Origin: Candidatus Algichlamydia australiensis
GTDB lineage: Bacteria > Chlamydiota > Chlamydiia > Chlamydiales > JAJFMI01
NCBI GenBank assembly: GCA_033977065.1
Contig: JAXCHI010000003.1
Location: 64,001-128,000, forward strand
DNA: 64,000 nt
Direction of reading: 5' to 3'
Shown here one piece after another: positions 1 through 21,341 of the stretch. Each line of letters opens with the position of its first letter. Position 1 is the first letter of the stretch. A program made the position numbers and the translations under genes. The notes beneath the pieces are model-generated. The model was not told the origin of the DNA. It saw nothing but the letters and a program-made list of their open reading frames with translations, and made no database searches.

Positions 1-717
1 CTATTTGATCAATTAAAAGGCAAAATTTACATAGAGCAGAATAAAAAATTTACGCAAATCCATGGAATGAACGGGTTTCTCAATGATGGGGAGACTCTTC
101 TTTTTACCCCCTGGTTTCACCGAACAACCCTAACTCCTTACAAAACGCAAGAAGCGATTATTGAAAATGGCAAAGTGGTGAAAATGGCAGAAGTAGGAAG
201 TAACATTATTCCCGATGAGGGCTTTATTCTTGCTTCTCCTCAAGGAAAACCGGTAATTGAATATGGAGCGCAAGAGATTCGTTATAAAGTTGAGTTAATA
301 CCTGAAGAGGGCTCCGGAACGGTTGGTCAGTGGGAGCAAGTAGAGAACATTGTGAGCAGCTTTCCTCTTCTCATAAAAAATGGGAAGCGCCATATATTTA
401 AAGGTGAGGGGCCTGGTGACTACACGATTGATGCTTTTATCAATACTAGGCATCCGCGCTCTGCTGTAGGTGTTCGCAAAGATGGCACGTGGATTTTTGC
501 CATTATCGATGGAGGAGCAGAATCAGATATCGGTGTTAACCTTCATGATTTAGCTGAAATCATGGAGAAAGAGCAGTGCTACAATGCAATTAACCTAGAT
601 GGCGGCAGCTCCTCTTCTCTTGTAATTGATGGAGAGTACAAAAATATTGGAAGTGGAAAGGCTGCTCGCGTTGGAAACGCCCTACTCATCTTCCCTCGCT
701 CTCAATCATCTAAGTGA
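1..717 (+). CDS. Phosphodiester glycosidase (NAGPA-like) family protein, 5'-truncated by window edge
   Basis: Frame open from base 1; motifs RHPRSAVG and AINLDGGSSS typical of the family. Confidence 0.85.
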   Translation, partial: LFDQLKGKIYIEQNKKFTQIHGMNGFLNDGETLLFTPWFHRTTLTPYKTQEAIIENGKVVKMAEVGSNIIPDEGFILASPQGKPVIEYGAQEIRYKVELIPEEGSGTVGQWEQVENIVSSFPLLIKNGKRHIFKGEGPGDYTIDAFINTRHPRSAVGVRKDGTWIFAIIDGGAESDIGVNLHDLAEIMEKEQCYNAINLDGGSSSSLVIDGEYKNIGSGKAARVGNALLIFPRSQSSK

Positions 718-1259
718 AAGACCTCGCTTCGTAGATCTGCTATTACCTCTTTGTAAACGCTCTGAAGGTTTTCCTCTAATGAAGTCACAGGAGTGCGAGG
801 ATTTTCTCCAGTAAGTCCATGACCTTTAATGTTGGCATAATAACTTTTTAGGAAAATCTCATTCCCTTCTTCAAGAACACGAACTTTTAGATGCACCTTG
901 CCACCAAACTTGAAGTAGACATCACAATAAAGTTCTTGAATACTTCCCTGAATTTCGTATTTGCTATCTTCAGCAAAGGAAAATCCTGCCAGCTTTAACT
1001 CTTGAGAAAGTGCGCTTGACACCCACTCAGAAACATTCTCTTCTGTTTTAATAGAGACAATAGGCATTCCATACAAGTTTCTGTAGCAACCGATATTTTG
1101 CGGTTTTTTTCTCGTATCTATGAATTCAGAAACACGTACTTGAATAGAATTTTCTGGTTGCTGCTCTGTAATGGGTCTGTAAGCCAAATTGTTTTTTACT
1201 GAGCAACTGGCCAAACCCAAACAGAGAAGAGTTAGGTAAATTTTTTTCACGATAGACAC
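702..1259 (-). CDS. Putative lipoprotein (YajG-like)
   Basis: Lipobox LGLASC; EFIDTR and 'VSSALSQELKLAGF' resemble YajG-type lipoproteins. Confidence 0.6.
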   Translation of the reverse strand: MSIVKKIYLTLLCLGLASCSVKNNLAYRPITEQQPENSIQVRVSEFIDTRKKPQNIGCYRNLYGMPIVSIKTEENVSEWVSSALSQELKLAGFSFAEDSKYEIQGSIQELYCDVYFKFGGKVHLKVRVLEEGNEIFLKSYYANIKGHGLTGENPRTPVTSLEENLQSVYKEVIADLRSEVFHLDD

Positions 1260-1303
1260 CTCAAATATATTTTGTTTTCGATTATAAAGAGACGAAAAAA
1301 AAG

Positions 1304-1545
1304 AGCAAAAAAAACCGCTTAAGATTTCTCTTTAACGGCGAAGTAAAACTTGGCAACGACCTACTCTTACGGCCCCAAAACATTGCAATTCCCACATCCC
1401 ACTTGTGGAGCTTACTCTTTCTTTTCATAATGCTTCTTAGCAATAGCCTGTGGCTATTCCTTTCGTCGCATTCTAAAAATCTAGAGCAAGCTGCACTTCC
1501 TGTAATGAGTAAATTGCAATGTTTTGCTACCTATACTCTTGTGCA
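1304..1545 (-). repeat. Degenerate duplicate of rrn terminator plus 3' end of 5S rRNA, interrupted by a palindromic element
   Basis: 1304-1367 matches 1564-1629; 1533-1545 (atactcttgtgca) continues the 5S match (atactctcgtgca). Confidence 0.8.
1371..1531. mobile_element. ~161-bp palindromic MITE-like element
   Basis: caaaacattgcaatt (1376-1390) / aattgcaatgttttg (1512-1526); inner arms gtggagcttactct/agagcaagctgcac; apical aatagcc-tgt-ggctatt. Confidence 0.7.
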
Positions 1546-1566
1546 AAAAATCAAAAGGAATTTAGC

Positions 1567-1601
1567 AAAAAAAAAGCCGCTAAAGATCTCTCTTTAGCGG
1601 C
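1567..1601 (-). terminator. Intrinsic terminator of rRNA operon
   Basis: Perfect hairpin gccgctaaaga-tctc-tctttagcggc followed by a U-tract on the minus strand, just past 5S. Confidence 0.85.
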
Positions 1602-1610
1602 GAAGTAAAA

Positions 1611-1724
1611 CTTGGCAACGACCTACTCTCCCATACTCTCGTGCATAGTACCATCGGCGATGAAGGGCTTGACTACTGAGTTCGAAATGGAATCAGGTAT
1701 ACCCCCTTCTCTAATGTCACCAAG
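1611..1724 (-). rRNA. rrf: 5S rRNA
   Basis: Reverse complement CTTGGTGAC...GAGTAGGTCGTTGCCAAG with paired ends, downstream of 23S. Confidence 0.95.
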
Positions 1725-1835
1725 AAAGCTCAAGTATCGTCAATTTCAACAATACAAAACGACGTTTGAGTCATCTTATATGGTTTTTAATCTTTTCGTT
1801 GCTCATCTCAAGATGAGATAAGCAATGAAAAAAAA

Positions 1836-4773
<2,938 letters not shown>

Positions 4774-5087
4774 AGAAAGTTACGTGATCTAAAGTATATT
4801 AGATCGATAATTGCCACATAAGATTGTGATTAAAATAAATTAATCACCCTATTCTCAAACGTCGTTTTGTATCTTTGAAATTGTTTTCAATTAGATTTTA
4901 AGACGTTAGAATCTAAAAAAGTTTTTTTTAGATTATAATTATAATTTTGATACTTAAGCTATACTTTCAAGATAACAAACGCTCTTCTAAAAGAGCATTC
5001 TGCATTTGACAGCAGAAGAGAAGTGATGCAGTTTAAGGCCAAATATGTGCCTCAACCTAGTTACGAGCGTCTAAACACTCGAACTTG

Positions 5088-6650
<1,563 letters not shown>

Positions 6651-7181
6651 GAATATGAAAAAAAAATTTATTTACGGGTAGATCCATTTAAAAAATGAAT
6701 CGACCTAGCACATTATTTGGTTTGCTTATGTAACTTACACCCTAGAGTGTAAACTACATCTGCATCACTTCACTTCTACTGTCAAAAAAACTTTGGTCAG
6801 CTCTTAGACTTTGACCTTTTCTCCTTTGAGTGCTTTTCACTCTCAGAGAAGTTCTAAATGTACATGAGACGCGATTTATTACGCAAATGGTTTTGGCTAA
6901 AAAAGTTCGAAAATCTGAAATAAAATAATTAGTACTATATTTTACCACCTTCTTTTTTTTCCTTTTTCCATAGACAAAACATGCTCAAAATGGCCTGTAG
7001 ACACCTTTCGCAAAAAAATTCGCGAGCAAATACGAATGAGGGAAAATTTCTCCGGATTAAAAATTTTTATTTCTACTTTTTACCGTTTTTTTAGGCTAGT
7101 TTTTTACACGCTGCGTGTAAGTATTTATTTTAATCAGATTCAAGGAGTGCGAAACACCAGTATTGTTCAGGGATTCCTTTA

Positions 7182-7365
7182 GAAAGGATTGAATAAATGC
7201 TTTGCTAGCAGGCCAAGTTGAAAAATTTTAAAAGGGGTTATTTGTAGATCGCAAATGCCTAGTGCTCTGTAACAGAGTACTAGATACAGTTAGTTAGAAA
7301 TTGAAAATACCCTTTTCAAGGATTTCTCAACCGGGATATTGGTGAGTGAGTTATTCAGTGGCTCC
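7182..7365. mobile_element. Degenerate palindromic element (163 bp after removing a 21-bp nested insert)
   Basis: Ends gaaaggattgaataa / ttattcagtggctcc; inner arms gttgaaaaattttaaaaggggttattt / aaatacccttttcaaggatttctcaac. Confidence 0.55.
7259..7283. mobile_element. Collapsed footprint of the CTAG-TACTCTGTAACAG element family
   Basis: CTAG-TGCTCTGTAACAGAGTA-CTAG equals the fused left and right termini of the elements at 31728-32294. Confidence 0.7.
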
Positions 7366-7369
7366 TTAA

Positions 7370-7531
7370 AGAGATACTGAATAACTGCTCTTTTCAAAAA
7401 GGGATCAAAAAATGAGGACAAATTGGTTTTGGAGAACGGAGCTAACTCAACTATGAGTTAGTGAGTTCAAAAAACCGATTTGGACCAATTTTTGATCCCT
7501 TATTGAAAAGTCTGAGTTGTTCAGTATCTCC
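7370..7531. mobile_element. 162-bp palindromic MITE-like element flanked by TTAA/TTAG
   Basis: TIR AGAGATACTGAATAACT / GGAGATACTGAACAACT; arms pair along the whole length; apical gctaactca-acta-tgagttagt. Confidence 0.8.
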
Positions 7532-8804
7532 TTAGGCAAGAGAAACGAGATAGACTGCCATACCGGCTAAAAATCCTGCTAATGCTGGAAGGCTCGCTTT
7601 TTTCATATATTGAAAAAAAGTTGATTTTTTCCATTCCCATCATTGCGACTCCAGAAGACGAGCCTATTAAGAGGATAGATCCTCCTGTACCTGCAGCATA
7701 GGCAATCATCATCCAAAGATTTGAATCTTGGGGAAACTGCTCAATAGAGTACATTCCCATTGTTGCTGCAACAAGTGGAACGTTATCAATTATCGCAGAA
7801 AAAATCCCAATTAAGGTTGCAATCGCAGGTAGACTTCCTATATGCACTTGTAACCATGTTGCTACTCCTTCTAGAAAACCAATGCTGTCTAGAGAATCGA
7901 TCGTCAAAAGAATTCCAAGAAAGAAAAGAATATTCGATACATCAACTTTTGTTAGGATATGCGGTACACGCAAATGCTGGCGATGTTCATATTTATAGTG
8001 CAAAATATCGGTTACAAACCAAAGAATTGCAAGCGCAATCAGTATGGCCATGTAGGGCGGAACTCCTGTCAACCAATGAAAGATGGGGACAAGAAGTAGC
8101 GACGCTATCCCCATACAAAAGACAAGTTTTGCCCCCGGCTCCTTCTCTTCAATCTGTGGGGGTTCTTTTGTTGTTGTTCCTTTTCGCATAGAGTAGGTGT
8201 AAATCATGAGAGGAACAAGCATACAGATTAGGCTTGGAAAAAAGACTTCGTTCATAACTTTTAGTGTCGTGATTTGTCCTTGAATCCAGAGCATAGTTGT
8301 CGTGACATCGCCAATTGGTGTCCACGCACCACCCGCATTTGCAGCAATGATCACCATACAAGAAAATGTTAATCTTGTTTTGCGATTAGGAACGAGTTTT
8401 TTTAGTATGGAGATCATCAAGATTGTTGTGGTCAAGTTATCAAGTACAGCAGAGAGAAAGAAGGCGAAGAACGAGACGGTCCAAAGAAGCTGTCTTTTGG
8501 AATGGGTATGAATGAATCGCATAACGGTCTGAAATCCTTTATGTGAATCAATGAGTTCCACAAGTGTCATTGCACCTAGCAAAAAGAAGAGAATTTCTGA
8601 TGTGTCTGAGAGTCGTTCTGAAAGATCTGTAATATCAACTGAGAGCGGCTCTAAGTTTCCTAAGAAATAAATAGTCCAACAGATTACACCTGTAAAGAGT
8701 GCCACCGCAGTCTTGTTGAGCTTTACAAAAAATTCGAAAATGATCGCAAGATACCCAATGCAAAAAAATGCAAGGATCAAAGAGTAAGCAAGTGTGGCTT
8801 CCAT
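7532..8804 (-). CDS. nhaD: NhaD-type Na+/H+ antiporter with apparent +1 frameshift near the C-terminus
   Basis: SAVLDNLTT, AANAGGAWTPIGDVTT, IIDNVPLVAA, AGTGGS motifs; removing one base of the A7 run at 7613-7619 restores an NhaD-like end (FFQYMKKASLPALAGFLAGMAVYLVSLA, stop 7532-7534). Confidence 0.85.
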
Positions 8805-8828
8805 GCCTTCATTTTATATGATTAAAAA

Positions 8829-9785
8829 TTATAATCCAGACTGAATTACATCGTGTAAATGGAGTAAACCGACAAGTTTATTCTCTTTTAATACGGGAAG
8901 CATCATGATGCGTTTTTGTGGATCGCTCTCCATCTCCTCAATAGCTTCAACAATCAACTTATCTCCTGCAATTGAGCGAAATGTTTTGACCATCACCTCA
9001 GATACAGGCGCTTGCAGTATTGTGTCTCCATAGGTTTGCAAAGCACGGCGCAGATCTCCATCAGTAAAAATTCCTGTAATTTTCTCTTCCTCATCTGCAA
9101 CTAAGACGCAGCCACATCTTTTTGAAGAGAGCTCAAGAAGGATGTCGCGCACTTTATCTGTCGGTTTGCAAAGAGGCAGCCTCTCCCCCTGGATCATAAC
9201 GTCAGAAACGTGCGTTGTAATCCGGCGTCCAATCCGTCCTGCTGGATGATTCATTGCATAATCTGACAATGTAAATTTTTTCTCTTCCATTAATGCTACT
9301 GCAAGAGCATCTCCTAGAAGCAGCTGTAATAGGGATGAGGTCGTAGGTGCTAAGTTAAAAGGGCAGAGCTCTTCGTCAAGTGGCAAATAACAGAGTAAAT
9401 CGCACTCTTTTGCTAACCTGCTCTCCCTATTTGATGTCCAAACGATAGTTTGAATGCCGCGAGATTTTACAGCTGTAAGTAGATTGATCAGCTCTTCACT
9501 CTCTCCACTCTTGCTCAAGACAATGAGCAAATCTTTTTCTTGAACAATTCCCACATCACCGTGCATCGCATTTGTTGGAGGAAGGTAGAGCGCGCGTGTC
9601 CCTGTTGAAAGAATGGTCGTCGCGATTTTTTCTGCAATGTGCCCGCTCTTTCCTACACCTGTGAACAAAAGTGTGCCCTGACACGCAAGAAAGAGTTCCA
9701 TAATTTTTTCGGTACATTGAGGATCAATGTTTTGAAAAAAATGATTTAGCGAGTTCTGTTGTTTTTGAAAATATTTTTTCAGCAT
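8829..9785 (-). CDS. kdsD: Arabinose-5-phosphate isomerase (KpsF/GutQ family, SIS + CBS)
   Basis: GVGKSGHIA, HGDVG, LAPTTS, HPAGRIG, CBS pair. Confidence 0.93.
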   Translation of the reverse strand: MLKKYFQKQQNSLNHFFQNIDPQCTEKIMELFLACQGTLLFTGVGKSGHIAEKIATTILSTGTRALYLPPTNAMHGDVGIVQEKDLLIVLSKSGESEELINLLTAVKSRGIQTIVWTSNRESRLAKECDLLCYLPLDEELCPFNLAPTTSSLLQLLLGDALAVALMEEKKFTLSDYAMNHPAGRIGRRITTHVSDVMIQGERLPLCKPTDKVRDILLELSSKRCGCVLVADEEEKITGIFTDGDLRRALQTYGDTILQAPVSEVMVKTFRSIAGDKLIVEAIEEMESDPQKRIMMLPVLKENKLVGLLHLHDVIQSGL

Positions 9786-9825
9786 CTTCTTTAATTCTAT
9801 ACCTTTTATCTAATAGAATAAAGGC

Positions 9826-11253
9826 ATGAGTATTCCTATTGCATTTGCCCGCGGGGACGGCATTGGCCCCGAAATTATGGAGGCGGTCCTTCACATCTTG
9901 AAGGAAGCTGGCATTCCTCTAGAGCTTCACGAAGTGGAGATTGGGGAAAAAGTTTATAATCGCGGTATCGCAACTGGCATGGCTCCTGAAACGTGGGATG
10001 TGCTGCGCAATACAAAAGCTTTTTTAAAAGCGCCTATCACGACTCCTCAAGGAGGAGGGTTTAAAAGTTTAAATGTTACCGTACGCACAACACTTGGTCT
10101 CTACGCCAATGTGCGCCCTTGCATTAGTTACTCCCCTTTTATTAAGACCAAACATCCCGATATGAATGTGGTCATTGTGCGAGAAAATGAGGAGGATCTC
10201 TATGCAGGCATTGAGTACCGCCAAACTCCCGAAATTTGCACTTCGATCAAATTAATTTCAGAACCCGGATCAGAAAAAATTGTCCGCTATGCATTTGAAT
10301 ATGCTCGGGCAAATGGTCGCAAAAAGGTGAGCTGCTTCACAAAAGATAACATTATGAAGCTCTCTGATGGCCTCTTCACTCGTGTATTCCTTGAGGTAGC
10401 CAAAGAGTATCCCGATATTGAACATGAGCACTGGATTGTTGATATTGGTGCAGCTAAATTGGCCGATACTCCTGAAAATTTTGATGTTGTTGTTCTTCCC
10501 AATCTCTACGGAGATATCCTCTCTGATGTTGCTGCGCAAATCAGCGGCTCTGTTGGGCTTGCTGGCTCTGCAAATATTGGAGATCATGGCGCTATGTTTG
10601 AAGCAATTCACGGATCTGCTCCCCGCCGAGCGGGCCAAAACATGGCCAACCCTTCTGGTCTTCTTTTTGGCTCTCTGCTCATGTTGCAACATCTTGGCCT
10701 AGGAGAGATGGCCGAAAATATTCACAACGCATGGCTTAAAACAGTTGAAGAGGGCATCCACACTTACGATATTTTTGTGGAAGGAACAAGCAAAGAAAAA
10801 GTGGGAACAAAGGAATTTGCTGAGGCAATCGTAAAAAATCTTGGCATGAGACCGGAACAACTTAAGTGCGCTGCTTACTCAAAAGAGAAAAAAGGTTTTA
10901 AAAAACCCCATTTAAAAACGATCGAAACTAAGCGCGAACTCGTCGGTGTTGATGTCTATTTCTATGCAAAAACTACCCTGTCTGACTTTGTGGAGAAAAT
11001 GAAAGATGAGGGACATGGCAATTTAAAAGTGCAAATGATGACGAATCGCGGAGCCAGAATTTACCCGCACGGACAACCCGAAACTTTTTGTACAGATCAG
11101 TGGCGCTGTCGTTTTACAACTGGTGGCAGCTGCACCCAAAAAGAGATCAGCGATCTTTATGCAAAGCTTAGTGATGCGGGCCATGACATCATTAAAACAG
11201 AAAATCTCTACAGTTTTGACGGGAGCTTAAGCTACTCGCACGCCGAAAAATAG
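9826..11253 (+). CDS. icd: NADP-dependent isocitrate dehydrogenase
   Basis: GDGIGPEI, KAPITTPQGGG, RENEEDLY, NLYGDILSD, FEAIHGSAP. Confidence 0.95.
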   Translation: MSIPIAFARGDGIGPEIMEAVLHILKEAGIPLELHEVEIGEKVYNRGIATGMAPETWDVLRNTKAFLKAPITTPQGGGFKSLNVTVRTTLGLYANVRPCISYSPFIKTKHPDMNVVIVRENEEDLYAGIEYRQTPEICTSIKLISEPGSEKIVRYAFEYARANGRKKVSCFTKDNIMKLSDGLFTRVFLEVAKEYPDIEHEHWIVDIGAAKLADTPENFDVVVLPNLYGDILSDVAAQISGSVGLAGSANIGDHGAMFEAIHGSAPRRAGQNMANPSGLLFGSLLMLQHLGLGEMAENIHNAWLKTVEEGIHTYDIFVEGTSKEKVGTKEFAEAIVKNLGMRPEQLKCAAYSKEKKGFKKPHLKTIETKRELVGVDVYFYAKTTLSDFVEKMKDEGHGNLKVQMMTNRGARIYPHGQPETFCTDQWRCRFTTGGSCTQKEISDLYAKLSDAGHDIIKTENLYSFDGSLSYSHAEK

Positions 11254-11277
11254 CAACCTCCCAGGAACCACAAACGC

Positions 11278-14200
11278 TCAACAAGACACATCCTTTTTTA
11301 CTTTCGTTTGCGATTCATGCTCAGGAGGCCACTTAGAGATGTCTTCAGGAACATAAGATTTTCCATCCCTAAATTTCCAACATTTTTCGGATGGTGTTGC
11401 ATATAACAAACGATGAAGTTGGACGTGACTCTTAGCAGCTACGCGATCCCCAAATGTATAGTACCCAATTTCATTAGGAAATTCATCGGAATATTCATGA
11501 GGATACATAAAAATTTTAGAACCGCTTTTACCTGGATATGCAACAGGCATTCTAGCATCAAATGACTCCATTCCTGTAGGTACTAAAATTTCTTCTACAA
11601 ACTTTAAAGCATCACTCTCAATTTTGTATAGAGCTCTTTCAAGGAAACTCTTTCCTTTGTCTTTGGATTTTGCTTTTTTAACTTTAGCTTTAGAGTAAAG
11701 TCGATTTGCTACAGCCTCCCTCTTTGCATCCACTCTATACATAGCGGTATTTTTTGCACGCTTAATAAAATCAACTGATTTGTCAATATTGGAGAGCTCT
11801 TGCCTAGAAGCAAACTCTTTAGAAAAATGCATCAAATTCATAAAAAAGAGTTCACACTGATATTCAATAAAATTCATAAGACCAAATTCATCCTCGTACT
11901 TTACTGTTGAGAGCTTTAAAGCCAAGTCACTGGCTACTTGAAGTGCAAATAGTTCCATGGTAAACATTTCCGGTAAAACAGTGAGACACTCCATTTTTTC
12001 TTGCAACTCGGTTATACAAATTTGCAAACCGTTAAAATTTCTCCTAAGTTCTTTTTTAGATTTTTCTTCATAATAACTACCTACTGCTTCACGAATTAAC
12101 CCCATCATAGTATTGATAGGAAAAGTTACAAGAAAAGCAGGTCCAGGAAAACCCATAACAGCTAATCCATCATCACTGGCAATGCTAACACCCCACGCTA
12201 AAATCCCCAATGCTGTGCTGATCTTTTGCGACGCTTCATCTCTGGTTAGCTCTACGAACTCACTTTTCCCAGCATAGAGTCCAATAATTACTGCCTGCAA
12301 GCGGTCACGAAATTCTCTAAATATTTGTATTCCATTTCTAATCGAGGGATTTTCATCATTCTTATATTCAATGTCAGGTAGTATTTCTACTTTTTTCAAT
12401 ATCTCTTGACGCTTCACAAGATATTTTCCAAACGATGACAAAGCAGAAATGCAATCCACTGAAATGCCCAGCTTTTTCACTTGTTCAAAAAGCTCTGTAT
12501 TTTCTTCCATCAGCTTATTGTTGCTCTCGATTGCCTTACTAATTTTTGCTTGTTCATTTTTAAGGTCTTGGATAGCTACAGATGCTTCTACGCTAAAAGC
12601 ATTCAAGGCGTCTGCAAACTTCGTCTCCCAGCTCTTAAGATCATCTTTTTGATGAGAGTCGAATTCCTTTTTTAATTTTTCATACTTATTTAATCCTTCT
12701 AAAACCTCACCCTCTAACAAATTAATTTTATTTTTGAGATTGGCTATTTGTGTTACAACACTGGCTATTTGTGCGGAGGTAAACTTTTGCCTAGAGCGAG
12801 TCTTTAACATTTTCCCAATCCAATCCGCCAAATCCTGTCTTTTATTAAAAATCGCATAATCAAGTGGTGTGCGCCCAGTTGAATCTGGTATCTGAAGAAT
12901 CGATGGGTTTGCAACTAAAGAATCAAGTACATCAACCGGAACATGAGTTTGTTTTAATGCGTAATGTAGAGCTGTATCTCTAATTATATCGAATCCACTT
13001 TTCCCTCTATCCCAATTAGGAAACTCTGTATCTATCTCGAACTTCCCTTCTAGATTTGCAAAAGGTGTCATTCCCGAACTAATAAATTGGGTAACTTCGC
13101 CACAAGAATTATCCGCAATAGCTCGCCTTAAATGGACTAAGCTTTGGTAATTATTAGCAATATGGCCTTGAATTTCTGAGAGAGGGCTTTTTATCAAAGA
13201 GCAGTTTTTCTTCTTAAATGCCCCCCAGTCTAAGGCTGTATTAGTCTTAGCTCTAAAAAAAGCCAACACTTTTGTTTCTGCTAAAGATTCGGCAAAAAAG
13301 GGAGGCATTAAATTTTCACCAAGGTCGAGCCATACAATTGTACGCTGATAATTAAATCTTGTTGGCTGGATCCCCTCACCGATTACTTCCATTTGCTTTG
13401 AGTTGAGACTATTTCCTGCCAAACTTACAATTGACAATCGATTTCTTTCTAAAAAGAGGGCTTTAATAAACTCGATGTTTTTTTTAGACGAATTTCCTCC
13501 TAGTTTGTTATTTGCTAGGTTAATTGCATAAAGAGCTTGCTTTTGATTGAATAAGTTTTTTATTTTATTTGTGTTGTATTTGCAATCTTTAAAATTAATC
13601 TCACAGCCAGCAAGATCAAGAGAGCAAACTACACTATTAGTTTTTAGTGCCTTAAGCAATTTATAAACTTTTTCAGCCCCTAGCTTTACGCCTCTAAAAC
13701 TCAACTTAGTAAGCCAAGAAAAGGGGTCAAAAGGGACATTATCAAGCTTCTTTAAAAAAATCTCAAAACCACTGTTACTCTTTTCTGTTTTAAGTTCTTC
13801 GATCTCTTGTTCCAGCTTCTTTGACCTTTTTTTTACCTCCTTCAATGCACGCCCTACATTTTGAAGTTCATTCCTTTGTGATCGAATTTTCCCATCTTTA
13901 CATCTTTCAAAACCGTACGTTCTACGAGGGTCCAAAATATACTTACGCCTTGGTCGGGAAGTAAATTTTTTGGCTGGAATGTCTTTACCTTTATGCCTTT
14001 TAAGATCGTGCACTCGAGGTTCCCAACGATGTTTAGGCCTTCGATCGCAAACAAATTTTTTGATCGGAGTCTGCTTATGTTCAAGTACTTCAAATTTACG
14101 CTTACGTTTATCTCTTGAAAGTAAACTCATTCTTCTACGAAGAGCATCTTTAATAAAAATTTCTTCTTTTTGAAGACGGGTTTCTTTATTTCGAAGACGA

Positions 14201-14337
14201 ATTTCTCCATTTTGAAGACATTTCAGAGATTCTAATTTGCTTTTTAAATCCTTAGCGGGATTCGAACTCTCCAAAAACTCTTGCATATCTGCGAGTGGGG
14301 CTCCCGCCATTCTAGAGGGAACTAGTCGTAATGTCAT
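11278..14337 (-). CDS. Large LRR + ankyrin + coiled-coil protein, putative secreted effector
   Basis: LRRs (LDLAGCEI, INLANNKLG, VSLAGNSLN, LDLGENLM), ankyrin motifs (DTALHYAL, GRTPLDYAI), heptad-rich segments, basic N-terminal region. Confidence 0.7.
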   Translation of the reverse strand: MTLRLVPSRMAGAPLADMQEFLESSNPAKDLKSKLESLKCLQNGEIRLRNKETRLQKEEIFIKDALRRRMSLLSRDKRKRKFEVLEHKQTPIKKFVCDRRPKHRWEPRVHDLKRHKGKDIPAKKFTSRPRRKYILDPRRTYGFERCKDGKIRSQRNELQNVGRALKEVKKRSKKLEQEIEELKTEKSNSGFEIFLKKLDNVPFDPFSWLTKLSFRGVKLGAEKVYKLLKALKTNSVVCSLDLAGCEINFKDCKYNTNKIKNLFNQKQALYAINLANNKLGGNSSKKNIEFIKALFLERNRLSIVSLAGNSLNSKQMEVIGEGIQPTRFNYQRTIVWLDLGENLMPPFFAESLAETKVLAFFRAKTNTALDWGAFKKKNCSLIKSPLSEIQGHIANNYQSLVHLRRAIADNSCGEVTQFISSGMTPFANLEGKFEIDTEFPNWDRGKSGFDIIRDTALHYALKQTHVPVDVLDSLVANPSILQIPDSTGRTPLDYAIFNKRQDLADWIGKMLKTRSRQKFTSAQIASVVTQIANLKNKINLLEGEVLEGLNKYEKLKKEFDSHQKDDLKSWETKFADALNAFSVEASVAIQDLKNEQAKISKAIESNNKLMEENTELFEQVKKLGISVDCISALSSFGKYLVKRQEILKKVEILPDIEYKNDENPSIRNGIQIFREFRDRLQAVIIGLYAGKSEFVELTRDEASQKISTALGILAWGVSIASDDGLAVMGFPGPAFLVTFPINTMMGLIREAVGSYYEEKSKKELRRNFNGLQICITELQEKMECLTVLPEMFTMELFALQVASDLALKLSTVKYEDEFGLMNFIEYQCELFFMNLMHFSKEFASRQELSNIDKSVDFIKRAKNTAMYRVDAKREAVANRLYSKAKVKKAKSKDKGKSFLERALYKIESDALKFVEEILVPTGMESFDARMPVAYPGKSGSKIFMYPHEYSDEFPNEIGYYTFGDRVAAKSHVQLHRLLYATPSEKCWKFRDGKSYVPEDISKWPPEHESQTKVKKDVSC

Positions 14338-14484
14338 TTTCTACCTCTTTTCGTGCAGCAATTGTAGTATGGAAACACACAACCTTCAAGCACTTTTTTA
14401 AAGCACATAAAAATCTGACGAAAATTAACAGCTCTCCTTCTGCATACAGCTGCACCAAAATAAGCTGTTACATGTCAGCAGCTT

Positions 14485-14710
14485 CTATTTTTCGATAGCA
14501 CTCTTTAGTGTACCAAGAAAGTCATCCCCCTACATACCATCAGTAATGCGATGGTCAAAAGTTAGCGAGACATAGATGAATAAGGCGCTCCAAATGAATC
14601 ATCATCATGCGCAACAACTTCTTTCTCAATTGCCTCTATACCAATGATGGCAACTTCTGGGTGGTGACTGATAGAAATGCCAAAGCTACTCATAATAATA
14701 GTGCTTTCTT
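14485..14710 (-). pseudogene. Degenerate 3' fragment of dihydrolipoamide acyltransferase (E2)
   Basis: Translates to HHPEVAIIG...SLTFDHRITDGM*...FLGTLKSAIEK*, matching the E2 C-terminus at 16021-16270, with a stop, a frameshift and a deletion. Confidence 0.85.
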
Positions 14711-14719
14711 TAACTCAAA

Positions 14720-15011
14720 AGAGAGAGAGAAAAGTTTAAAAAGCTCCCTTTAAAACCGATCAAAACTAAGCACGAACTCATCGGTGTTGATATCTATTTC
14801 TATGGAAAAACTACCCTGCCTGACTTTGTAGAGAAAATGAAAGATGACAGATCAGTGGCGCTGTCGTTTTACAACTGGTGGCAGCTGCACCCAAAAAGAG
14901 ATCAGTGATCTTTATGCAAAGCTTTGCGATGCAGGCCACGATATTATCAAAACAGAAAATCTTTATAGCTTTGATGGAAACTTAAGTTACTCCCAAGCAG
15001 ATAAATTATAA
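14720..15011 (+). pseudogene. Duplicated 3' fragment of icd with 83-bp internal deletion
   Basis: Aligns to icd ~10883-11253; bases 11010-11092 are missing. Confidence 0.9.
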
Positions 15012-15082
15012 AAAAATATACTTCTAAAATAACCAAGAAATAGCTATCCTTGAAAAGAAATTAATTAAAAAAGGCGGCTAAA

Positions 15083-15982
15083 ATGGGAGCTTGGGGACCG
15101 GGTTTATATAGTAATGATTTTGCTTGTGATTTAAAGAGCACGATTCGAGCAGTATCGCGTCTTCCTTACGAACCTAAGAAAATTTTAGAACTTTTGTGCG
15201 AAATGGAGGAAGATACAGCAAGTAATCCTCTCAATGAAGATTATACGACTTTTTGGCTTGTTGTTGCGGACCAATTTTACAAAAAAGGAATTTATCTTAA
15301 GCATCTAAATGAGAAAGCCATCAAGATTATCGATAAAAAACAAGATTTACATATGTTAAGTGATCTTGGGATGGAAGATCGTGATTTAAAAAAACGCGAA
15401 AAAACACTTCAAAAGCTCAAATCTCTGCTTTGTAACCAAGCCAATGAACCTTCAAAAAAAAGAAAAACTTTAAAGGCTCCTCTGCCTTTTATCATGGAAG
15501 TCGGGGACTGTTTTTCCTTTCCCACTTCAAATGGTTTAGCCTTGAACCCTTACGTTTCCAAAAAAGATGCAGAAAGGTATTACAATGCATGTAAGTGGAA
15601 GCAAAATGGCTATGGTCTTCTGGTTGTTTGTGAGAGAGGAAGAGTTTTAGACTACCTTACTTGGTACCGCGTGCTCGTTATGGACCACTCCCCTGAAAAA
15701 AAGCCTTCTTTTAGCAAAGAACTTCTCATTGAAAATAAATGGTCTATTTGTGAACCGGGAGTGTTTACGAATGCTATGGTAAAAAATTGTAGCTTCGAAA
15801 AATTAGGTAATATTCAATTTAAAGAGGAAAAGTTGGATCAAATTTTTCCGAACCGCAAAAATCCTTATTGGAAGGTGCTAGATAATATCGGCATGGGTTT
15901 TTGTTCTTCAGTGCCAAACGATTGCGAGTTAGACAAAAATGCACAAGAGAGCCCCTGCCCTGGAACTTCTTTATTTGAGTAA
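15083..15982 (+). CDS. Hypothetical protein, DUF4259-like N-terminus
   Basis: MGAWGPGLYSNDFACD start typical of DUF4259-like proteins; C-half 'EVGDCFSFP...YGLLVV' recalls Imm26-type immunity domains. Confidence 0.55.
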   Translation: MGAWGPGLYSNDFACDLKSTIRAVSRLPYEPKKILELLCEMEEDTASNPLNEDYTTFWLVVADQFYKKGIYLKHLNEKAIKIIDKKQDLHMLSDLGMEDRDLKKREKTLQKLKSLLCNQANEPSKKRKTLKAPLPFIMEVGDCFSFPTSNGLALNPYVSKKDAERYYNACKWKQNGYGLLVVCERGRVLDYLTWYRVLVMDHSPEKKPSFSKELLIENKWSICEPGVFTNAMVKNCSFEKLGNIQFKEEKLDQIFPNRKNPYWKVLDNIGMGFCSSVPNDCELDKNAQESPCPGTSLFE

Positions 15983-16020
15983 GATAGCACTGAAAAACAA
16001 CTAAATTTTCTTAAGTAGCT

Positions 16021-17160
16021 TTATTTTTCAAGCATAGTTTTTAGTGAGCCAAGAAAGTCGCAGCCGTACATACCATCAATGATACGATGATCAAAGGTGA
16101 GTGAAATGTGAATCACAGAGCGTACGCCAAATGAGTCATCTTCATTCGCTACCACTTTTTTCTCTATCGCTCCCATTCCAATGATTGCGACTTCAGGGTG
16201 ATGAATAATAGGAATGCCAATTTTCACTCCTGACATGCCAAAATTGGTCATGGTAATGGTACTTCCTTGTACTTCATCAGGTTTAAGAGTTTGACTGCGC
16301 GCTTTTGCTGCAAGGTCTGCCAACTTTTGAGCTACTTCGGGATGAGAAAGTTTGTCGATTTGCGGAATTACAGGAACAAGTATTCCCTCTTTTACACTAA
16401 CTGCAATACCGAGATTGATATGGCGTTTCAAGACGATATGATCGTGATCGACTGAGGCGTTGAGAAGGGGAAATTTTGTTATGGCTTGGCTAATTGCATG
16501 GGCAACATAACTTGTAATGGTGAGTTTACAGCCATGCTCTTTTTGAAAGCTCTCTTTGTTTGCTGCAATGCTGTTTTTGATATTTGTAATATCAATTTCT
16601 GCAACGAGGGTGGCGTGCGGCGCTTGATAGAAAGATTTGACCATGCTCTCAGCAATCGCTTTGCGCATGCCACTCATTTTCACTCTCTCCTCGTGGTCGG
16701 AAGCTGGCGTTGAAGAGCGTTTTTTTAGATAGTTTTCTATGTCTTTTTTGCTTACGCGTCCGCCTGCTCCTGTTGCAGGAATTTTTTTCAGTTCATCAAG
16801 AGGTATCCCCGCTTCACTTGCAATGCGGATCACGGCCGGTGAGAGGTAGTGCGTCATCGACTCTTGAGTTGGTGCTGGCTCTTCTTGGGGAACCTCTTCT
16901 TTGACTGTGCTCTCTTCTGCCTTGGTACCTGTTTCAATATGGCAGAGCAACGCTCCTACCTCGAGATCATCATCAGGTTTTGCAAAAATTTTTCTGATTA
17001 CTCCCGATACAGGAGAGGGTATCTCGCTATTAACTTTGTCTGTTGAGACTTCTAAAAGTGGCTCATCAAGATCAACTCTTTCACCCTCCTGCTTAAACCA
17101 CTGCACAATTTTTGCGCTTAAGATGCTCTCGCCGAGCTTTGGGAGCCGTACTTCTTCCAT
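16021..17160 (-). CDS. 2-oxo acid dehydrogenase E2 (dihydrolipoamide acyltransferase)
   Basis: Lipoyl motif EVSTDKVNSEIPSP, E3-binding GAGGRVSKKD, catalytic DHRIIDG. Confidence 0.95.
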   Translation of the reverse strand: MEEVRLPKLGESILSAKIVQWFKQEGERVDLDEPLLEVSTDKVNSEIPSPVSGVIRKIFAKPDDDLEVGALLCHIETGTKAEESTVKEEVPQEEPAPTQESMTHYLSPAVIRIASEAGIPLDELKKIPATGAGGRVSKKDIENYLKKRSSTPASDHEERVKMSGMRKAIAESMVKSFYQAPHATLVAEIDITNIKNSIAANKESFQKEHGCKLTITSYVAHAISQAITKFPLLNASVDHDHIVLKRHINLGIAVSVKEGILVPVIPQIDKLSHPEVAQKLADLAAKARSQTLKPDEVQGSTITMTNFGMSGVKIGIPIIHHPEVAIIGMGAIEKKVVANEDDSFGVRSVIHISLTFDHRIIDGMYGCDFLGSLKTMLEK

Positions 17161-18392
17161 TATTCAAGCCAAGTTGTATGGTGATATTGATCTTCGTTGA
17201 TCTGCTTCTCTCTTTTTGCAATGAAGACTGCTGCTGCTGCGTCACCAAGAACGTTCACAACAGAGGAGACCATTTCGCGTATGCGATCCACTCCTGCAAG
17301 AAGGGCAATCCCTTCGAGGGGAAGACCCATTGCATTGAGAACAACTGAGAGCATGATCAGTCCTGTTCCTGGTACACCGGCCGCACCAATAGCAGATACA
17401 AGAGAGATCACAAAAAGTGTAATAATTTTTAAAACGCTTAACGGTATCCCATACGCTTGCGCAATGAACACAGCTGAAATTGCTTGCCCTATCGCTGCTC
17501 CATTCATGTTCACTGTTGAGCCAAGCGACATCACAAATCCGGAAACATCTTTTGAAACTCCTAGGTGGTCGCGGGCGCACTCCAAGGAAACAGGGAGCGT
17601 TGCAGAACTACTCGAGGTGGAAAAAGCAACCACAATTGCATCTTTCATTCCTTTGAAGAAGGGCGTAATCTCGAGTTTTGCATAGCGTAAAATCAAGCTG
17701 AAAATCACAACAATCTGAATCAAACAAGCGATGTAATTACAAACTAAAAATTTTGCAAGTGGAAGAATAAGCTTTAATCCCATTGACCCAATCACAGAGG
17801 CCATCAACGCAAAGACCCCAATCGGAGCAAGACGCATAATAAAATGGGCCAGCGAATACATAATTTCTGCTACTGATTCGAGGACACTAAGGACAGGTTT
17901 ACCGCGCTCTCCAGAGAGCGTTAACCCAAATGCAAAAAGGATGGCAAATACAATAATTTGTAAAACATTTCCTTCAGTAAATGAAGCAAAGGGGTTTTTG
18001 GGGACTAAAGAGAGAATGAAATCTGACCAACTCATAAGAGGTGGCTCAGTGAAATTCACCCCTAAATTATGTTTGAGGTTAAGGCCCACTCCCGGCTCGA
18101 TAATATAGGCAAATATCAATCCTAATCCAATTGCTACTAAAGTAGTAATTGCATAAAAAGCAAAGGTCGTAAGACCAATGCGGCCCAATTTTTTTGGATC
18201 GTTTATATGACAAATTCCTACAACAAGAGAAGAGAAAATAATCAAACCGACAAGCATTTTAAGCAAGTCAATGAAGATTTTACCCGCTACATTGAATAGT
18301 TCAATATCTTTTTGGACGATCAGACCGACAAGTATCCCTAAAAAGAGTCCTATCAGGATCTGAATCCAAGGTTTTTTGATCCAAAGTTTCAT
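17160..18392 (-). CDS. gltT: Dicarboxylate/amino acid:cation symporter (GltT/GltP family)
   Basis: FSTSSSSATLP, TVNMNG, GVPGTG motifs; ATG 18392 overlaps lpxK stop. Confidence 0.9.
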   Translation of the reverse strand: MKLWIKKPWIQILIGLFLGILVGLIVQKDIELFNVAGKIFIDLLKMLVGLIIFSSLVVGICHINDPKKLGRIGLTTFAFYAITTLVAIGLGLIFAYIIEPGVGLNLKHNLGVNFTEPPLMSWSDFILSLVPKNPFASFTEGNVLQIIVFAILFAFGLTLSGERGKPVLSVLESVAEIMYSLAHFIMRLAPIGVFALMASVIGSMGLKLILPLAKFLVCNYIACLIQIVVIFSLILRYAKLEITPFFKGMKDAIVVAFSTSSSSATLPVSLECARDHLGVSKDVSGFVMSLGSTVNMNGAAIGQAISAVFIAQAYGIPLSVLKIITLFVISLVSAIGAAGVPGTGLIMLSVVLNAMGLPLEGIALLAGVDRIREMVSSVVNVLGDAAAAVFIAKREKQINEDQYHHTTWLE

Positions 18393-19363
18393 AATTCTCC
18401 AATTTTTTCTGACCAAGCGTCGTAGAGATCATTTCCGTATGTGATTTTCATTTCACACTTCAAATAGTTGATGGGGAGCGAGTACTTCTTAACTTTCTCA
18501 AGCTTCACCCAATCTTTTTCGCTACAGAGAATCTCAGTTGCTCCAAGAGATTTTGCTCTCTTAGCAAAAGCCTCTAGTTTACGTGAGGAGATCCTCCTAT
18601 GGTCAGGGATTATTTTTTTTAAGCGCACCTCCCCACCTAATCTCTCCACTTCTGAGAGAAAGGCGCGGGGGTTTCCCAGCGCACAAAATGCAGCAACAGG
18701 TCCTCTCTCTATCTTTGAAAGAGTTTGCAAATGGCAACCCACAACCGGAGCTTGGCTCCAAGATTTAAGTTGCTGCCTTACTTGAGCAAAATGCTCTCTA
18801 TCTTTTGCACGATTCACTACGATAAGTGTCGCATTTTTTAACCTCTCGGGTAAATCGCGAAACTTTCCGCAGGGAAGAAGAGGACCGATGGGGTTTGTCC
18901 CATCAATCATTACAACCTCTTCATCGCGCGCCAATCGCCTATGTTGCATCCCATCATCTAAGAGCAGTACTTCAGCACCTAGCTTCTCAGCCCACTTTGC
19001 AGATGCAGTGCGATCTTTCCCTACAAAGACCATCACACCAGGGAGGCTTTTTGCCATTAAAAAAGGCTCATCTCCCCCCTCTTCAGGGCTTAAAAGTGGT
19101 CCAGTGCCATCACTCATTAAAGCGAGCTTTCTCTCGGACCGCGAGCGATACCCTCGAGAGAGTATAGCAACTTTTTTCGTCTGCATCAGCTGGCGAGCCA
19201 GCATGATGGTAAAGGGAGTTTTTCCACTCCCTCCGCATGCAATATTGCCAACGCTAATCGTTGGCAAGAAGCTTTTATAAACTCTGCGCCATTCTTGATC
19301 GTAGGAGTAGTGACGCAATCTCACTCCTAATTCATAAATTTTACTCGCAAGCGAGCCAATCAA
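18389..19363 (-). CDS. lpxK: Tetraacyldisaccharide 4'-kinase
   Basis: SVGNIACGGSGKTP, LSRGY, GDEP, LDDGMQH. Confidence 0.95.
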   Translation of the reverse strand: MIGSLASKIYELGVRLRHYSYDQEWRRVYKSFLPTISVGNIACGGSGKTPFTIMLARQLMQTKKVAILSRGYRSRSERKLALMSDGTGPLLSPEEGGDEPFLMAKSLPGVMVFVGKDRTASAKWAEKLGAEVLLLDDGMQHRRLARDEEVVMIDGTNPIGPLLPCGKFRDLPERLKNATLIVVNRAKDREHFAQVRQQLKSWSQAPVVGCHLQTLSKIERGPVAAFCALGNPRAFLSEVERLGGEVRLKKIIPDHRRISSRKLEAFAKRAKSLGATEILCSEKDWVKLEKVKKYSLPINYLKCEMKITYGNDLYDAWSEKIGEL

Positions 19364-19956
19364 GTGGCAACCAACTCTTCACGGTAGACGTCAAGATGAC
19401 TCTCTACCATCTCTATCAAAATATGAATCGCCGCCATGTGAGCTTCTTGTATTCTATCAGAATACGTGAACCCATCGATGATCAATTCAAAATCAGCAAG
19501 GCCTCTCATCTTCCCACCGCCCTTTCCTAGAAAGGCTACGGTTACAAGTCCCATCTCCTTCGCTTTTGTAAGGGCTTTCAGCAGGTTTTCTGAATTTCCG
19601 CTTGTAGTCAAAGCAACGAAGAGATCTCCTCTCTTACCAAGTGCTTCTACTCCTCGCACGAAAACGTCCTGAAAGCCTGCGTCGTTTGCTACACAGGTGA
19701 TGTGTCCCGGTTCAGAGAGACAAATAGCGGGAAGTGGTCGACGCTTTTTGCGAAAAAATCCTGTTAGCTCCTCAGCAAAATGGGCCGCATCACACAGGCT
19801 CCCACCATTGCCAGCAACAATGAGCTTTCCACCCATGTCGTAGCAACGCGCTAGGGCTGTACTCACATCTTTTATGAACGCAACGCTTTTGCTGCTCTTT
19901 AGCTCTTCAATAGCGCGCGTGGCATCGTCCAAACTTTTTCGAATTGCACTTTCCAT
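19360..19956 (-). CDS. gmhA: Phosphoheptose isomerase
   Basis: GNGGSLCDAAHFAEEL, TTSGNS, DRIQEAH. Confidence 0.93.
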   Translation of the reverse strand: MESAIRKSLDDATRAIEELKSSKSVAFIKDVSTALARCYDMGGKLIVAGNGGSLCDAAHFAEELTGFFRKKRRPLPAICLSEPGHITCVANDAGFQDVFVRGVEALGKRGDLFVALTTSGNSENLLKALTKAKEMGLVTVAFLGKGGGKMRGLADFELIIDGFTYSDRIQEAHMAAIHILIEMVESHLDVYREELVAT

Positions 19957-20034
19957 TCAACGCTCGAGCGTAGCAGATTGAACATTTTTTTTCCAGTCGC
20001 CTCAAAAATCCCTTTTATTCATACTAGTTTGTAC

Positions 20035-20910
20035 ATGCTTAGTTTCAAAAAAATCGCAATAGTTGGCTCTACCGGAATGGTAGGAAAAGAGTTACAAACT
20101 TTTTTACTAAACCACCCAATAAAAAAATTTTCTTCACGCACTCCTTTAAGCAAATCTTCTTTTGAAGATCTCGACCTCGCTTTTTTTTGCAGTAGTAACA
20201 AAATTTCTAAAGAGTGGGTTCCTGTTGCACTCGCTTCAAATACTTTCGTGATTGATCTCTCTAGCGCTTATCGAGAAGATCCTCAAATCCCTCTTGTCAT
20301 TCCTGAAATCAATGGTCATCTATTGGAAAACAACCCCCGACTCGTAAGTTCACCAAATTGCACCGCTTCTATTCTCTCTCTAGCACTCTTTCCCCTTCAC
20401 AAACTTTTCGGAATCAAAAAAATCATTCTCTCCTCTTACCAAGCGATCAGTGGTGCTGGGCGTAAAAGTTACGAAGAGCTTCTCTCCCAAACAGCCAAAA
20501 AAGAGGGGCCTCTTGCCTTCAACCTCTACCTTCACCCGGGTGACGAGGAGGAAAAAGTGGTATTTGAAACGCGTAAAATTTTTAATCTGCCTGCTCTTCC
20601 CATCAGTGCTACGTGTGTACGTGTCCCCACTCTTCGTGCACATAGTATCTCTGTATTTGCGGAATTCTCTTCCCCTGTTGAATTAGGCGATGCAAAAAAA
20701 GTTTTACAACATCAGCCAGGAATAGCACTTGAACAGGTCACGCCGCAAGAAGCAAGTGGTAAAGAGGAGGTATTTGTAGGCAGAATACGTAAAGAGAGCT
20801 CCCACGCTCTTCACCTCTGGATTGTTGGTGACCAACTCTTAAAAGGGGCTGCATTAAATGCCTTTCAAATTGCAAAAAATTTACAACCTCTTTATCATAT
20901 GGAGACATGA
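20035..20910 (+). CDS. asd: Aspartate-semialdehyde dehydrogenase (compact)
   Basis: GSTGMVG, IDLSSAYR, SPNCT, YQAISGAG, TCVRVP, DQLLKGAALNA; ATG 20035 preferred over upstream TTG. Confidence 0.92.
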   Translation: MLSFKKIAIVGSTGMVGKELQTFLLNHPIKKFSSRTPLSKSSFEDLDLAFFCSSNKISKEWVPVALASNTFVIDLSSAYREDPQIPLVIPEINGHLLENNPRLVSSPNCTASILSLALFPLHKLFGIKKIILSSYQAISGAGRKSYEELLSQTAKKEGPLAFNLYLHPGDEEEKVVFETRKIFNLPALPISATCVRVPTLRAHSISVFAEFSSPVELGDAKKVLQHQPGIALEQVTPQEASGKEEVFVGRIRKESSHALHLWIVGDQLLKGAALNAFQIAKNLQPLYHMET

Positions 20911-21341
20911 AAGGGATCAAACTTCTATTTATATTTACCTGTTTCTCACTTTTCTCTTTTGAAAAGGAATTTACCCCTATTTACATTCTATTAAGCGAAA
21001 AACTTGCAGTAGAAAATCCTTTAGAAATCGCGGACGACCTCATAAAGCAAGAGGAACCTACTTTTGTTCCAATACCCAGCTGGGGTAAATGCGCAGTAAA
21101 GTGGGCTGGCAAAAAAAAATCGGAACCCAAGGGATTTTATCTCTACCTCAATGGCCCTGAAAGTAAGGTGCAAATGAAAGGTTATGCAACTCTTAATTAC
21201 AAGGGTTATCCTACTGCTGAAGGCTTCTCTCTTTCTAGCAACTTGCATCCTCGTATCAATGTCGATATGAACATCTCAACGAATGATCTTGTTCTTCGCT
21301 CTAAGAACTCTTTTGAAACGGCGATCGGCTGGAAATACTAA
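20907..21341 (+). CDS. Hypothetical exported protein
   Basis: ATGA overlap with asd; signal-peptide-like N-terminus; aromatic C-terminus. Confidence 0.5.
   Translation: MKGIKLLFIFTCFSLFSFEKEFTPIYILLSEKLAVENPLEIADDLIKQEEPTFVPIPSWGKCAVKWAGKKKSEPKGFYLYLNGPESKVQMKGYATLNYKGYPTAEGFSLSSNLHPRINVDMNISTNDLVLRSKNSFETAIGWKY

Follow-up and report, generated by a model that had tools for sequence, protein, structure and literature searches.

What kind of event leaves the dead 3' ends of two housekeeping genes lying back to back between the intact genes? The question is raised by a locus of Candidatus Algichlamydia australiensis that lies in a window of 64,000 nucleotides (nt), the whole stretch of DNA that was analysed (contig JAXCHI010000003.1 of assembly GCA_033977065.1, positions 64,001 to 128,000 of the forward strand; coordinates below count from the first letter of the window). 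The order along it is icd> <1019-aa ORF <E2' icd'> 299-aa ORF> <E2, where icd codes for isocitrate dehydrogenase, E2 for a 2-oxoacid dehydrogenase E2 acyltransferase, the two open reading frames (ORFs), named after their lengths in amino acids (aa), are the cargo, and the primes mark the dead fragments. We propose that the region is the seam of two complete alternative versions of one gene slot joined in tandem, preferably by a single event of homology-facilitated illegitimate recombination, a reading that we hold tentatively, at a probability of about 0.45. Participation of DNA from a lineage diverged at about the level of a congener is supported by the sequence comparisons. The locus is a real and unusually legible scar, plainly of a type of genome change already described; it reveals no new mechanism.

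Mosaic divergence of the dead gene ends

The gene order had been given in a preliminary description made from the sequence alone, and is borne out by the ORF list, family scans and a repeat search. Both flanking genes are intact: icd matches Pfam Iso_dh (8e-94) and Isocitrate_DH_C_bact (3e-31) as well as NCBIfam NF006673 (732 bits over residues 2-473) and is full-length, and E2 matches 2-oxoacid_dh (2e-74), Biotin_lipoyl and E3_binding, the NCBIfam equivalogs (aceF, sucB) all remaining below their cut-offs, so that E2 is given no substrate class. In the repeat search icd 10881-11009 recurs at 14719-14847 (87%) and icd 11092-11251 at 14847-15006 (88%), the shift of offset between the two matches corresponding to an 83-nt deletion in icd'. 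Similarly, E2 16022-16104 recurs at 14486-14568 (75%), a match that alignment lengthens to about 230 nt and whose counterpart within E2 is the last ~255 nt of the gene (16021-16275). No further copy of any part of icd' or E2' exists anywhere in the 1.8-Mb genome. Each half of the locus reads as a complete slot version with spacers of its own, in line with the earlier suggestion of two cargo versions in tandem: on the left the icd tail is followed after 24 nt by the 1019-aa gene and, after a further 148 nt, by the E2 tail, and on the right the icd tail is followed after 71 nt by the 299-aa gene, which ends 38 nt from E2.

Divergence along icd', for which the preliminary description had suggested a check of uniformity, proved to be far from uniform. 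Upstream of icd 11169 the two copies differ at 5 of 69 third positions, downstream of it at 16 of 27 (Fisher 2e-7), and a maximum-chi-square permutation test (0/20000) places a breakpoint between icd 11169 and 11172, across which the reading frame is kept. Immediately upstream of it, segment B1 differs from B1' at a single site in 78 nt, so that the closeness to icd stated earlier for icd' up to about 14925 holds only over 14847-14924; the 129 nt upstream of that stretch (A versus A') differ at 18 sites, distributed 7/7/4 over the codon positions, with synonymous and non-synonymous proportions (pS, pN) of 0.09 and 0.15. Downstream of the breakpoint the 27 codons of B2 and B2' hold 14.0 synonymous and 4.0 non-synonymous differences, bearing out the mostly synonymous divergence that had been noted in the last ~25 codons, and across segment B as a whole 17 of the 19 differences fall at third positions.

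As third taxon we used the only congeneric genome at hand (G001, at about 75% nucleotide identity). In A and B1, icd and icd' agree against the congener at 28 and 23 sites, respectively; the private changes in A number eight in icd', mostly at codon positions 1 and 2, and three in icd, with none private to icd in B1. Judging by these patterns A' and B1' (207 aligned nt) are sister to icd and decaying, at a level of about 5% (7/138 changes at codon positions 1 and 2). The near-identity of the two B1 copies does not reflect an intrinsically conserved stretch, because the congener differs from both of them at 23 of 78 sites. The third positions of B2 are star-like by comparison, the pairwise-shared sites numbering 6/8/4 (B2 and B2' share 6 and 8 with the congener), and the divergence between B2 and B2' is about that of the congener, with synonymous sites saturated. 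Changes specific to B2' relative to both icd and the congener are distributed 1/0/6 over the codon positions; hence B2' diverged inside a working gene, under purifying selection.

The E2 fragment tells a similar story. Among the 230 positions of the alignment, 65 distinguish E2' from E2 (12/13/40 over the codon positions), and the synonymous divergence remarked on earlier thus holds for the 40 of 65 differences at third positions. A 21-nt deletion, a 1-nt deletion that shifts the frame and an in-frame TAG mark E2' as dead. At third positions the three E2 tails are again star-like (E2' equals the congener at 17 sites, E2 equals the congener at 11, and E2 equals E2' at 11), so that E2' is no nearer to the intact E2 beside it than to the congener's gene; its distance from E2 is about that of the congener's E2, and synonymous divergence is saturated. 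The private changes at codon positions 1 and 2 number 19/154 in E2', 3 in E2 and 10 in the congener, an excess in E2' that we read as decay on top of functional divergence, from which 3-10 changes would be expected. The resulting estimate of decay, about 6-10%, is compatible with the 5% seen in A'+B1', and a single event can therefore have made both fragments. Foreign DNA appears to have been involved because both the last 27 codons of icd and the E2 tail are synonymously saturated and star-like with the congener, in agreement with the original proposal that DNA of a related lineage had recombined in.

The join between the fragments was placed by a three-way comparison with E2 (plus strand, from 16244) and icd (from 10850). 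It falls where an illegitimate join had been suggested (about 14710-14720), and the 3-nt microhomology between otherwise non-homologous sequences (Table 1) supports such an illegitimate origin. Two Logan contigs cross it with 0 differences, namely record 4 of run X1 (11121-14876) and record 9 of run X2 (12943-14769); X1 and X2 are runs of one study, and X1, possibly the source of the assembly, is for that reason not independent. As the junction is bridged in both, the dead fragments exist whichever way the exact 59-nt repeat shared by B1 and B1' is joined. As a side observation, the unitig depths of X2 run from 376 to 5,752 along the single-copy stretch 9800-17200, with hundreds of short contigs over 11035-13010; this unevenness possibly stems from amplification bias, from error variants at very high coverage or from related sequences.

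Table 1. Features of the icd/E2 locus and its immediate neighbours (window coordinates; primes denote dead fragments and their segments)
Feature	Position	Strand	Basis or remark
kdsD-like isomerase gene	8829-9785	-	ORF list and family scans
icd, intact isocitrate dehydrogenase gene, 475 aa, alpha-type with bacterial C-terminal domain	9826-11253	+	
icd segment A, copied as A' in icd' (to 14847)	10877-11010	+	
icd segment B1, near-identical to B1' (14847-14924)	11092-11169	+	59 nt exact, 11092-11150 = 14847-14905
icd segment B2, last 27 codons and stop, deeply diverged from B2' (14925-15011, own stop)	11170-11253	+	
1019-aa ORF, cargo gene 1	11278-14337	-	ORF list
Palindromic hairpin, terminator-like	14462-14484	.	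Directly beside the E2' stop, expected place of a donor gene terminator; weak feature, such sites not above shuffles
E2', dead 3' end of an orthologous E2 gene, last ~84 codons	14486-14715	-	Alignment
E2'/icd' junction, microhomology ACT	14713-14715	.	E2-derived sequence to 14715, icd-derived from 14713
icd', dead 3' end of icd	14713-15011	+	Repeat search and alignment
55-aa ORF exactly over B1'+B2', better-preserved part of icd'	14844-15011	+	ATG created at the 83-nt deletion joint
299-aa ORF, cargo gene 2	15083-15982	+	ORF list
E2, intact 2-oxoacid dehydrogenase E2 acyltransferase gene, three domains, 379 aa	16021-17160	-	
Dicarboxylate/amino-acid:cation symporter gene	17160-18416	-	Next after E2; then lpxK and gmhA

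A variable slot between icd and E2

We examined the same interval in 251 genomes sampled from the order, taking icd matches at E<=1e-100 and E2 matches at E<=1e-70. By these thresholds icd is present in 152/251 genomes and E2 in 130/250 scored. Among the matches listed (all but 5 of those to icd), 57 of the 59 same-contig pairs are convergent neighbours, and at least 13 further genomes carry icd and E2 on different contigs. The distance between the two matches in these 57 pairs ranges from 13 to 9389 nt (median 1452), 14 of them lying under 200 nt; in a genome of the same family (G002) the genes are only ~30 nt apart. For comparison, the neighbouring interval between E2 and the transporter gene has a median of 33 nt and exceeds 200 nt in 1 of 36 listed pairs, a control in which the genes are co-directional and which is thus not like-for-like.

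From 45 other slots, chosen after leaving aside 11 shorter than 200 nt, we collected 131 ORFs of at least 70 aa; together with the two of the window, 79 of 133 are singletons in an all-against-all BLASTP comparison. Pfam searches covered 123 of the 131, the other eight being ORFs of locus L087 homologous to ORFs of L082. The families found include peptide deformylase, Legionella-type porins, ABC and RND transporters, permeases, a protein kinase, an adenylate cyclase and glycosyltransferase clusters, beside many ORFs without a family; transposase fragments occur in L067, L085, L086 and L089, and toxin-antitoxin genes in L078 and L103. Neither cargo gene of the window was found in the slots of its relatives. 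The icd/E2 junction is accordingly a variable cargo slot, as the preliminary description had supposed, and an order-wide hotspot of gene turnover.

Gene-transfer hotspots between conserved core genes are a general concept. The present slot resembles them in that the same two convergent core genes flank differing gene sets across many genomes, mostly without recognisable mobile-element genes, and in that content varies beyond what is seen in the neighbouring interval; it departs from them in that here a surviving seam records the meeting of two versions. Such seams are rare. When the 45 loci were compared with their own gene tails, a second, independent scar emerged in one of them, so that seams are present in 2/46 loci: L103, from another family (G243:C1:786850-793150), has a frameshifted copy of the last 58 nt of icd with its stop (91%) about 190 nt downstream.

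In the congener the assembly breaks inside the slot, contig C176 ending 170 nt after icd and contig C6 starting 1.9 kb past the E2 stop; beyond E2 the latter carries a 497-aa ORF and a truncated ORF, both unrelated to the window's cargo genes. A search for scars in the congener returned nothing but the genes themselves. As a separate observation, in families lacking this E2 match (for example G117:C53, G212:C12, G220:C6 and G008:C133) icd converges directly on the symporter gene, often at ~60-150 nt, and the symporter gene would therefore be a conserved convergent partner, with E2 intervening in some families only.

Origin of the seam

In light of these features, we posit the following history. 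Version 1 of the slot would have consisted of an icd tail, the leftward 1019-aa gene and an E2 tail, and version 2 of an icd tail, the rightward 299-aa gene and E2, with the flanks of one of them (icd codons 449-475 and the E2 tail) deriving from a chlamydial lineage diverged as congeneric species are. A donor fragment composed of B2, the 1019-aa gene and an E2 tail, perhaps acquired during co-infection, would have been anchored in icd by homology, through an in-register homologous or homeologous crossover within 11152-11169, and its free end would have attached farther upstream, in another copy of the resident icd, by an illegitimate join at the 3-nt microhomology that links E2 codon ~295 of version 1 to icd codon ~352 of version 2. 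As a result, 10877-11169 would be duplicated and the resident icd tail and 299-aa gene displaced, and both fragments would later have decayed by some 5-8%, acquiring the 83-nt, 21-nt and 1-nt deletions and the stop codon as well. We prefer this single step to two steps because it is more parsimonious, with modest confidence; neither the outgroup nor composition separates the two histories. With respect to direction, the preliminary description had the foreign piece supply the working icd with its 3' end. The involvement of diverged DNA stands, and the mirror image, in which it is the icd' tail that is foreign, along with the 299-aa gene and the tail of the working E2, fits equally well.

Several observations weigh against the single-step account. 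B2 and B2' are equidistant from the congener (6 versus 8 third-position sites), so the foreign version is not polarised, and GC content at third codon positions (GC3), at 0.52 versus 0.30 in the 27-codon tails, offers too few sites (n=27) to polarise it. Recipient DNA is usually lost in classical homology-facilitated illegitimate recombination; its duplication here calls for two resident chromosome copies or for template switching. Changes on the E2' branch, at 6/13/11 by codon position, look neutral and have no third-position excess, and on this evenness E2' could have been dead longer than icd'. Furthermore, decay has gone less far in B1' (1/78) than in A' (18/129; Fisher 0.002), which may be due to later gene conversion or to chance; with the 42 nt nearest the junction removed, A' has 7/87 and the difference from B1' is at p=0.067. 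The k=31 unitigs of X1 and X2 end at the exact 59-nt repeat, with none reading through it. Lastly, no genome with a single-version slot was found: the contigs of the only congener end in the slot, and a metagenome scan with icd returned 39 loci, none above 75% aa identity (partial matches), with E2 nearby in L044 only.

The same anatomy with the same breakpoint would result from two steps, a history that we regard as possible if rather unlikely. In it, the resident stretch between icd codon ~352 and E2 codon ~295 would first have been duplicated in tandem at the ACT, giving icd-1019-E2'/icd'-1019-E2; homologous allelic replacement of the right-hand copy from a diverged relative, through crossovers located in B1' and, within E2, upstream of the tail that had been duplicated, would then have brought in B2', the 299-aa gene and the working E2 tail as foreign DNA and left E2' and the working icd native. 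Each of the processes invoked is common, microhomology tandem duplication as much as the replacement of hotspot content via flanking core genes, and the 299-aa gene, present in only one of the 250 genomes, is foreign to the order; the cost is two events, with an unselected tandem duplication of ~3.7 kb persisting until its replacement, no trace of a second 1019-aa copy, and no crossover that can be located in E2. Dispensing with foreign DNA altogether appears improbable. An internal duplication of about the age of the split from the congener, with A'-B1' refreshed by gene conversion from icd, would agree with the near-identity of B1' to icd (1/78), with the even changes on the E2' branch (6/13/11), as in a long-dead fragment, and with the ATG-initiated 55-aa ORF that covers exactly B1'+B2' (14844-15011); translation and selection of that ORF would keep the coding pattern of B2', and the cargo would have arrived separately. 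Such a course requires, however, a conversion tract ending exactly where deep divergence begins, an old duplication and two separate cargo insertions, as well as selection on an otherwise unsupported mini-protein, when the 83-nt deletion and the decay of A' indicate that icd' is not maintained as a whole and each half resembles a complete slot version.

A site-specific element of the e14 or phage 21 type that brought its own icd 3' end and has since lost its integrase is very improbable. Such an origin would account for the duplicated icd 3' end, the synonymously diverged replacement tail and the exact 59-nt boundary repeat, as in icd/icdC around e14 in the available part of PMC13626634, and the 58-nt icd-end copy at L103 in G243 points the same way; against it, no integrase, transposase or phage gene lies in or beside the insert, at its other end the insert has an E2 tail, expected of chromosomal DNA from a relative and not of an element, icd' continues past the boundary for 207 aligned nt on the upstream side, an extension for which an att site has no need, and the genome contains no other copy. 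The merging of two strains or molecules at the 59-nt repeat during assembly is likewise remote: the k=31 unitigs of both runs end at the repeat without spanning it, and the other path through it would give an intact icd-299-E2 locus and a 3,755-bp circle, the same products as recombination between the repeats; yet the E2'/icd' junction lies away from the repeat and is bridged without differences in two runs, the unitig depth of X1 is even over the three pieces (11.3, 12.2 and 13.4), and the repeat is shorter than ordinary reads. The available part of the species paper reports a long-read assembly polished with short reads (PMC11317633), which, if it is the assembly analysed here, the 59-nt repeat would not have misled.

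Two simpler schemes were rejected. A simple old duplication is at odds with the purifying-selection pattern that B2' keeps and with the unrelatedness of the cargo genes; the junction does join a unit end (the E2 tail) to an internal icd position, as in a tandem duplication, but the units are not copies throughout, only the gene tails being repeated. An all-donor circle integrated by a single crossover is at odds with A', which is of the resident type.

The single-step account finds its closest described counterpart, on our analysis, in homology-facilitated illegitimate recombination, of which the locus has both the in-register homologous border and the border with microhomology (ACT). The available part of PMC5361080 proposes this process for effector-immunity arrays of the Vibrio cholerae type VI secretion system (T6SS) and for orphan 3' ends at Rhs loci. 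As far as that part goes, the two cases agree in that homology within a conserved gene anchors one end, the other being joined without any, and in that the older module is pushed downstream and kept, leaving an orphaned gene end. They differ in that the anchor and the orphan ends are here those of the housekeeping genes icd and E2 and not of toxin genes, that both flanking genes left fragments, lying back to back, with recipient DNA duplicated rather than deleted, and that the locus has no effector-immunity logic and its host is an obligate intracellular chlamydia.

The integration of e14 and phage 21 into the icd 3' end of Escherichia coli, which generates icd/icdC (PMC13626634, available part), had been cited as a parallel in the preliminary description; it fits in the duplicated icd tail and fails in the mechanism. 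Going by the same portion of that source, the gene is the same, the replacement 3' end differs mostly synonymously, the displaced tail survives as a pseudogene across the insert, and a working chimeric icd would be regained if the copies recombined. As in that system a duplicated icd 3' end with a tail fused to icd is present, B2 and B2' both being of coding type; unlike it, no integrase and no phage or mobile-element genes are found, the insert has at its end a piece of the adjacent chromosomal gene E2, and the duplication reaches well upstream of where the exchange took place.

Within the phylum, Chlamydia co-infections have yielded interspecies recombinants, among them a mosaic with three rrn operons instead of two, as recounted in the available part of a review (PMC8936141), which therefore offers a precedent for such exchange with duplication. 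To the extent covered there, those cases also concern exchange at the species level whose outcome can be an addition or duplication and not a clean replacement; they come from laboratory crosses of Chlamydiaceae under selection, whereas the present event would be natural, old and in a distant chlamydial family.

On this reading the seam documents, at base level and in datable form, an exchange of chromosomal DNA between an environmental, obligately intracellular chlamydia and a lineage diverged at about the species level, as well as the gain of a gene through that exchange without any mobile element. The icd-E2 interval, as a discrete turnover hotspot, could serve comparative studies of the ways in which chlamydiae acquire accessory and candidate host-interaction genes. 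One may go further and picture an integrase-free cassette-exchange site operating across the order, at which co-infecting lineages swap accessory or host-interaction genes through core-gene tails and the identical repeat of 59-78 nt keeps the 1019-aa gene excisable; we consider this doubtful. Were it true, excision of the 3,755-bp circle would leave a working icd with the alternative tail, making this a reversible two-state locus, and the seam would be a direct record of exchange between congeneric chlamydiae.

Cargo genes and surroundings

The two cargo genes have no similarity to each other, and no second copy of the 1019-aa gene exists in the genome. In the 1019-aa ORF the Pfam model Ank_2 matches at 6.2e-5 with 23.9 bits, under its cut-off of 27.3, and no Pfam leucine-rich repeat (LRR) model matches. 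A word-based search returned the self-match only, and a full HMMER search gave 22 matches at E<=1e-3, short and of repeat type, nearly all within residues 199-345 or 423-544; on our own reading of the sequence the former stretch appears leucine-rich repeat-like. Its GC content is 36.6%, versus 41-45% in the neighbours. The gene is lineage-specific and a candidate for a host-interaction protein; that it encodes an effector is a reasonable guess.

The 299-aa ORF belongs to a widespread, unnamed family of ~300-aa proteins (184 homologues at E<=1e-3, the best at 42-43% identity), whose few named members derive from Planctomycetes and other metagenome-assembled genomes and from free-living bacteria. 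No Pfam family matches it at E<=10, and PADLOC gave no match. A profile of the family (33 members) finds nothing in any other scored genome of the order (249), the gene being present in 1/250, its own genome. An atlas search gave as its only lead a cluster containing DUF4259, a domain found in 36% of the cluster's members. For the confident AlphaFold2 (AF2) model, with a predicted local distance difference test (pLDDT) score of 88.4, Foldseek found nothing in the PDB at E<=0.001 (the C-terminal domain was not searched on its own), and VIA-align gave a best Z of 7.7 to generic helical repeats over residues 10-120 only. The gene looks like an import from outside the chlamydiae. Regarding the capture of an effector, which the preliminary description had read into the locus, the sub-threshold ankyrin match lends slight support in the case of the 1019-aa ORF, and no effector feature was seen in the 299-aa ORF.

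The insert itself, composed of one ORFan and an E2 fragment, is devoid of mobile-element hallmarks. No integrase or transposase family was found by Pfam among the 10 ORFs of 7521-20910, in keeping with the earlier remark that no integrase is visible, nor any integrase or recombinase family in the two cargo ORFs even at E<=10; PADLOC had no match at the insert, and no phage or mobile-element genes lie in or beside it. A search of 10800-16300 against Rfam yielded 0 matches at E<=0.1, a tRNA search of 7000-21000 came back empty, and promoter-like and terminator-like sites in the region show no excess over shuffles. Elsewhere in the genome a self-BLAST recovers 159 local repeat pairs, many of which look like ~165-nt palindromic elements, tandem repeats or paralogue arrays. 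The ~165-nt repeats (C3:186330-186496, 190121-190288 and 199446-199614, outside the window) match in both orientations, which gives them the palindromic look of miniature inverted-repeat transposable elements (MITE type).

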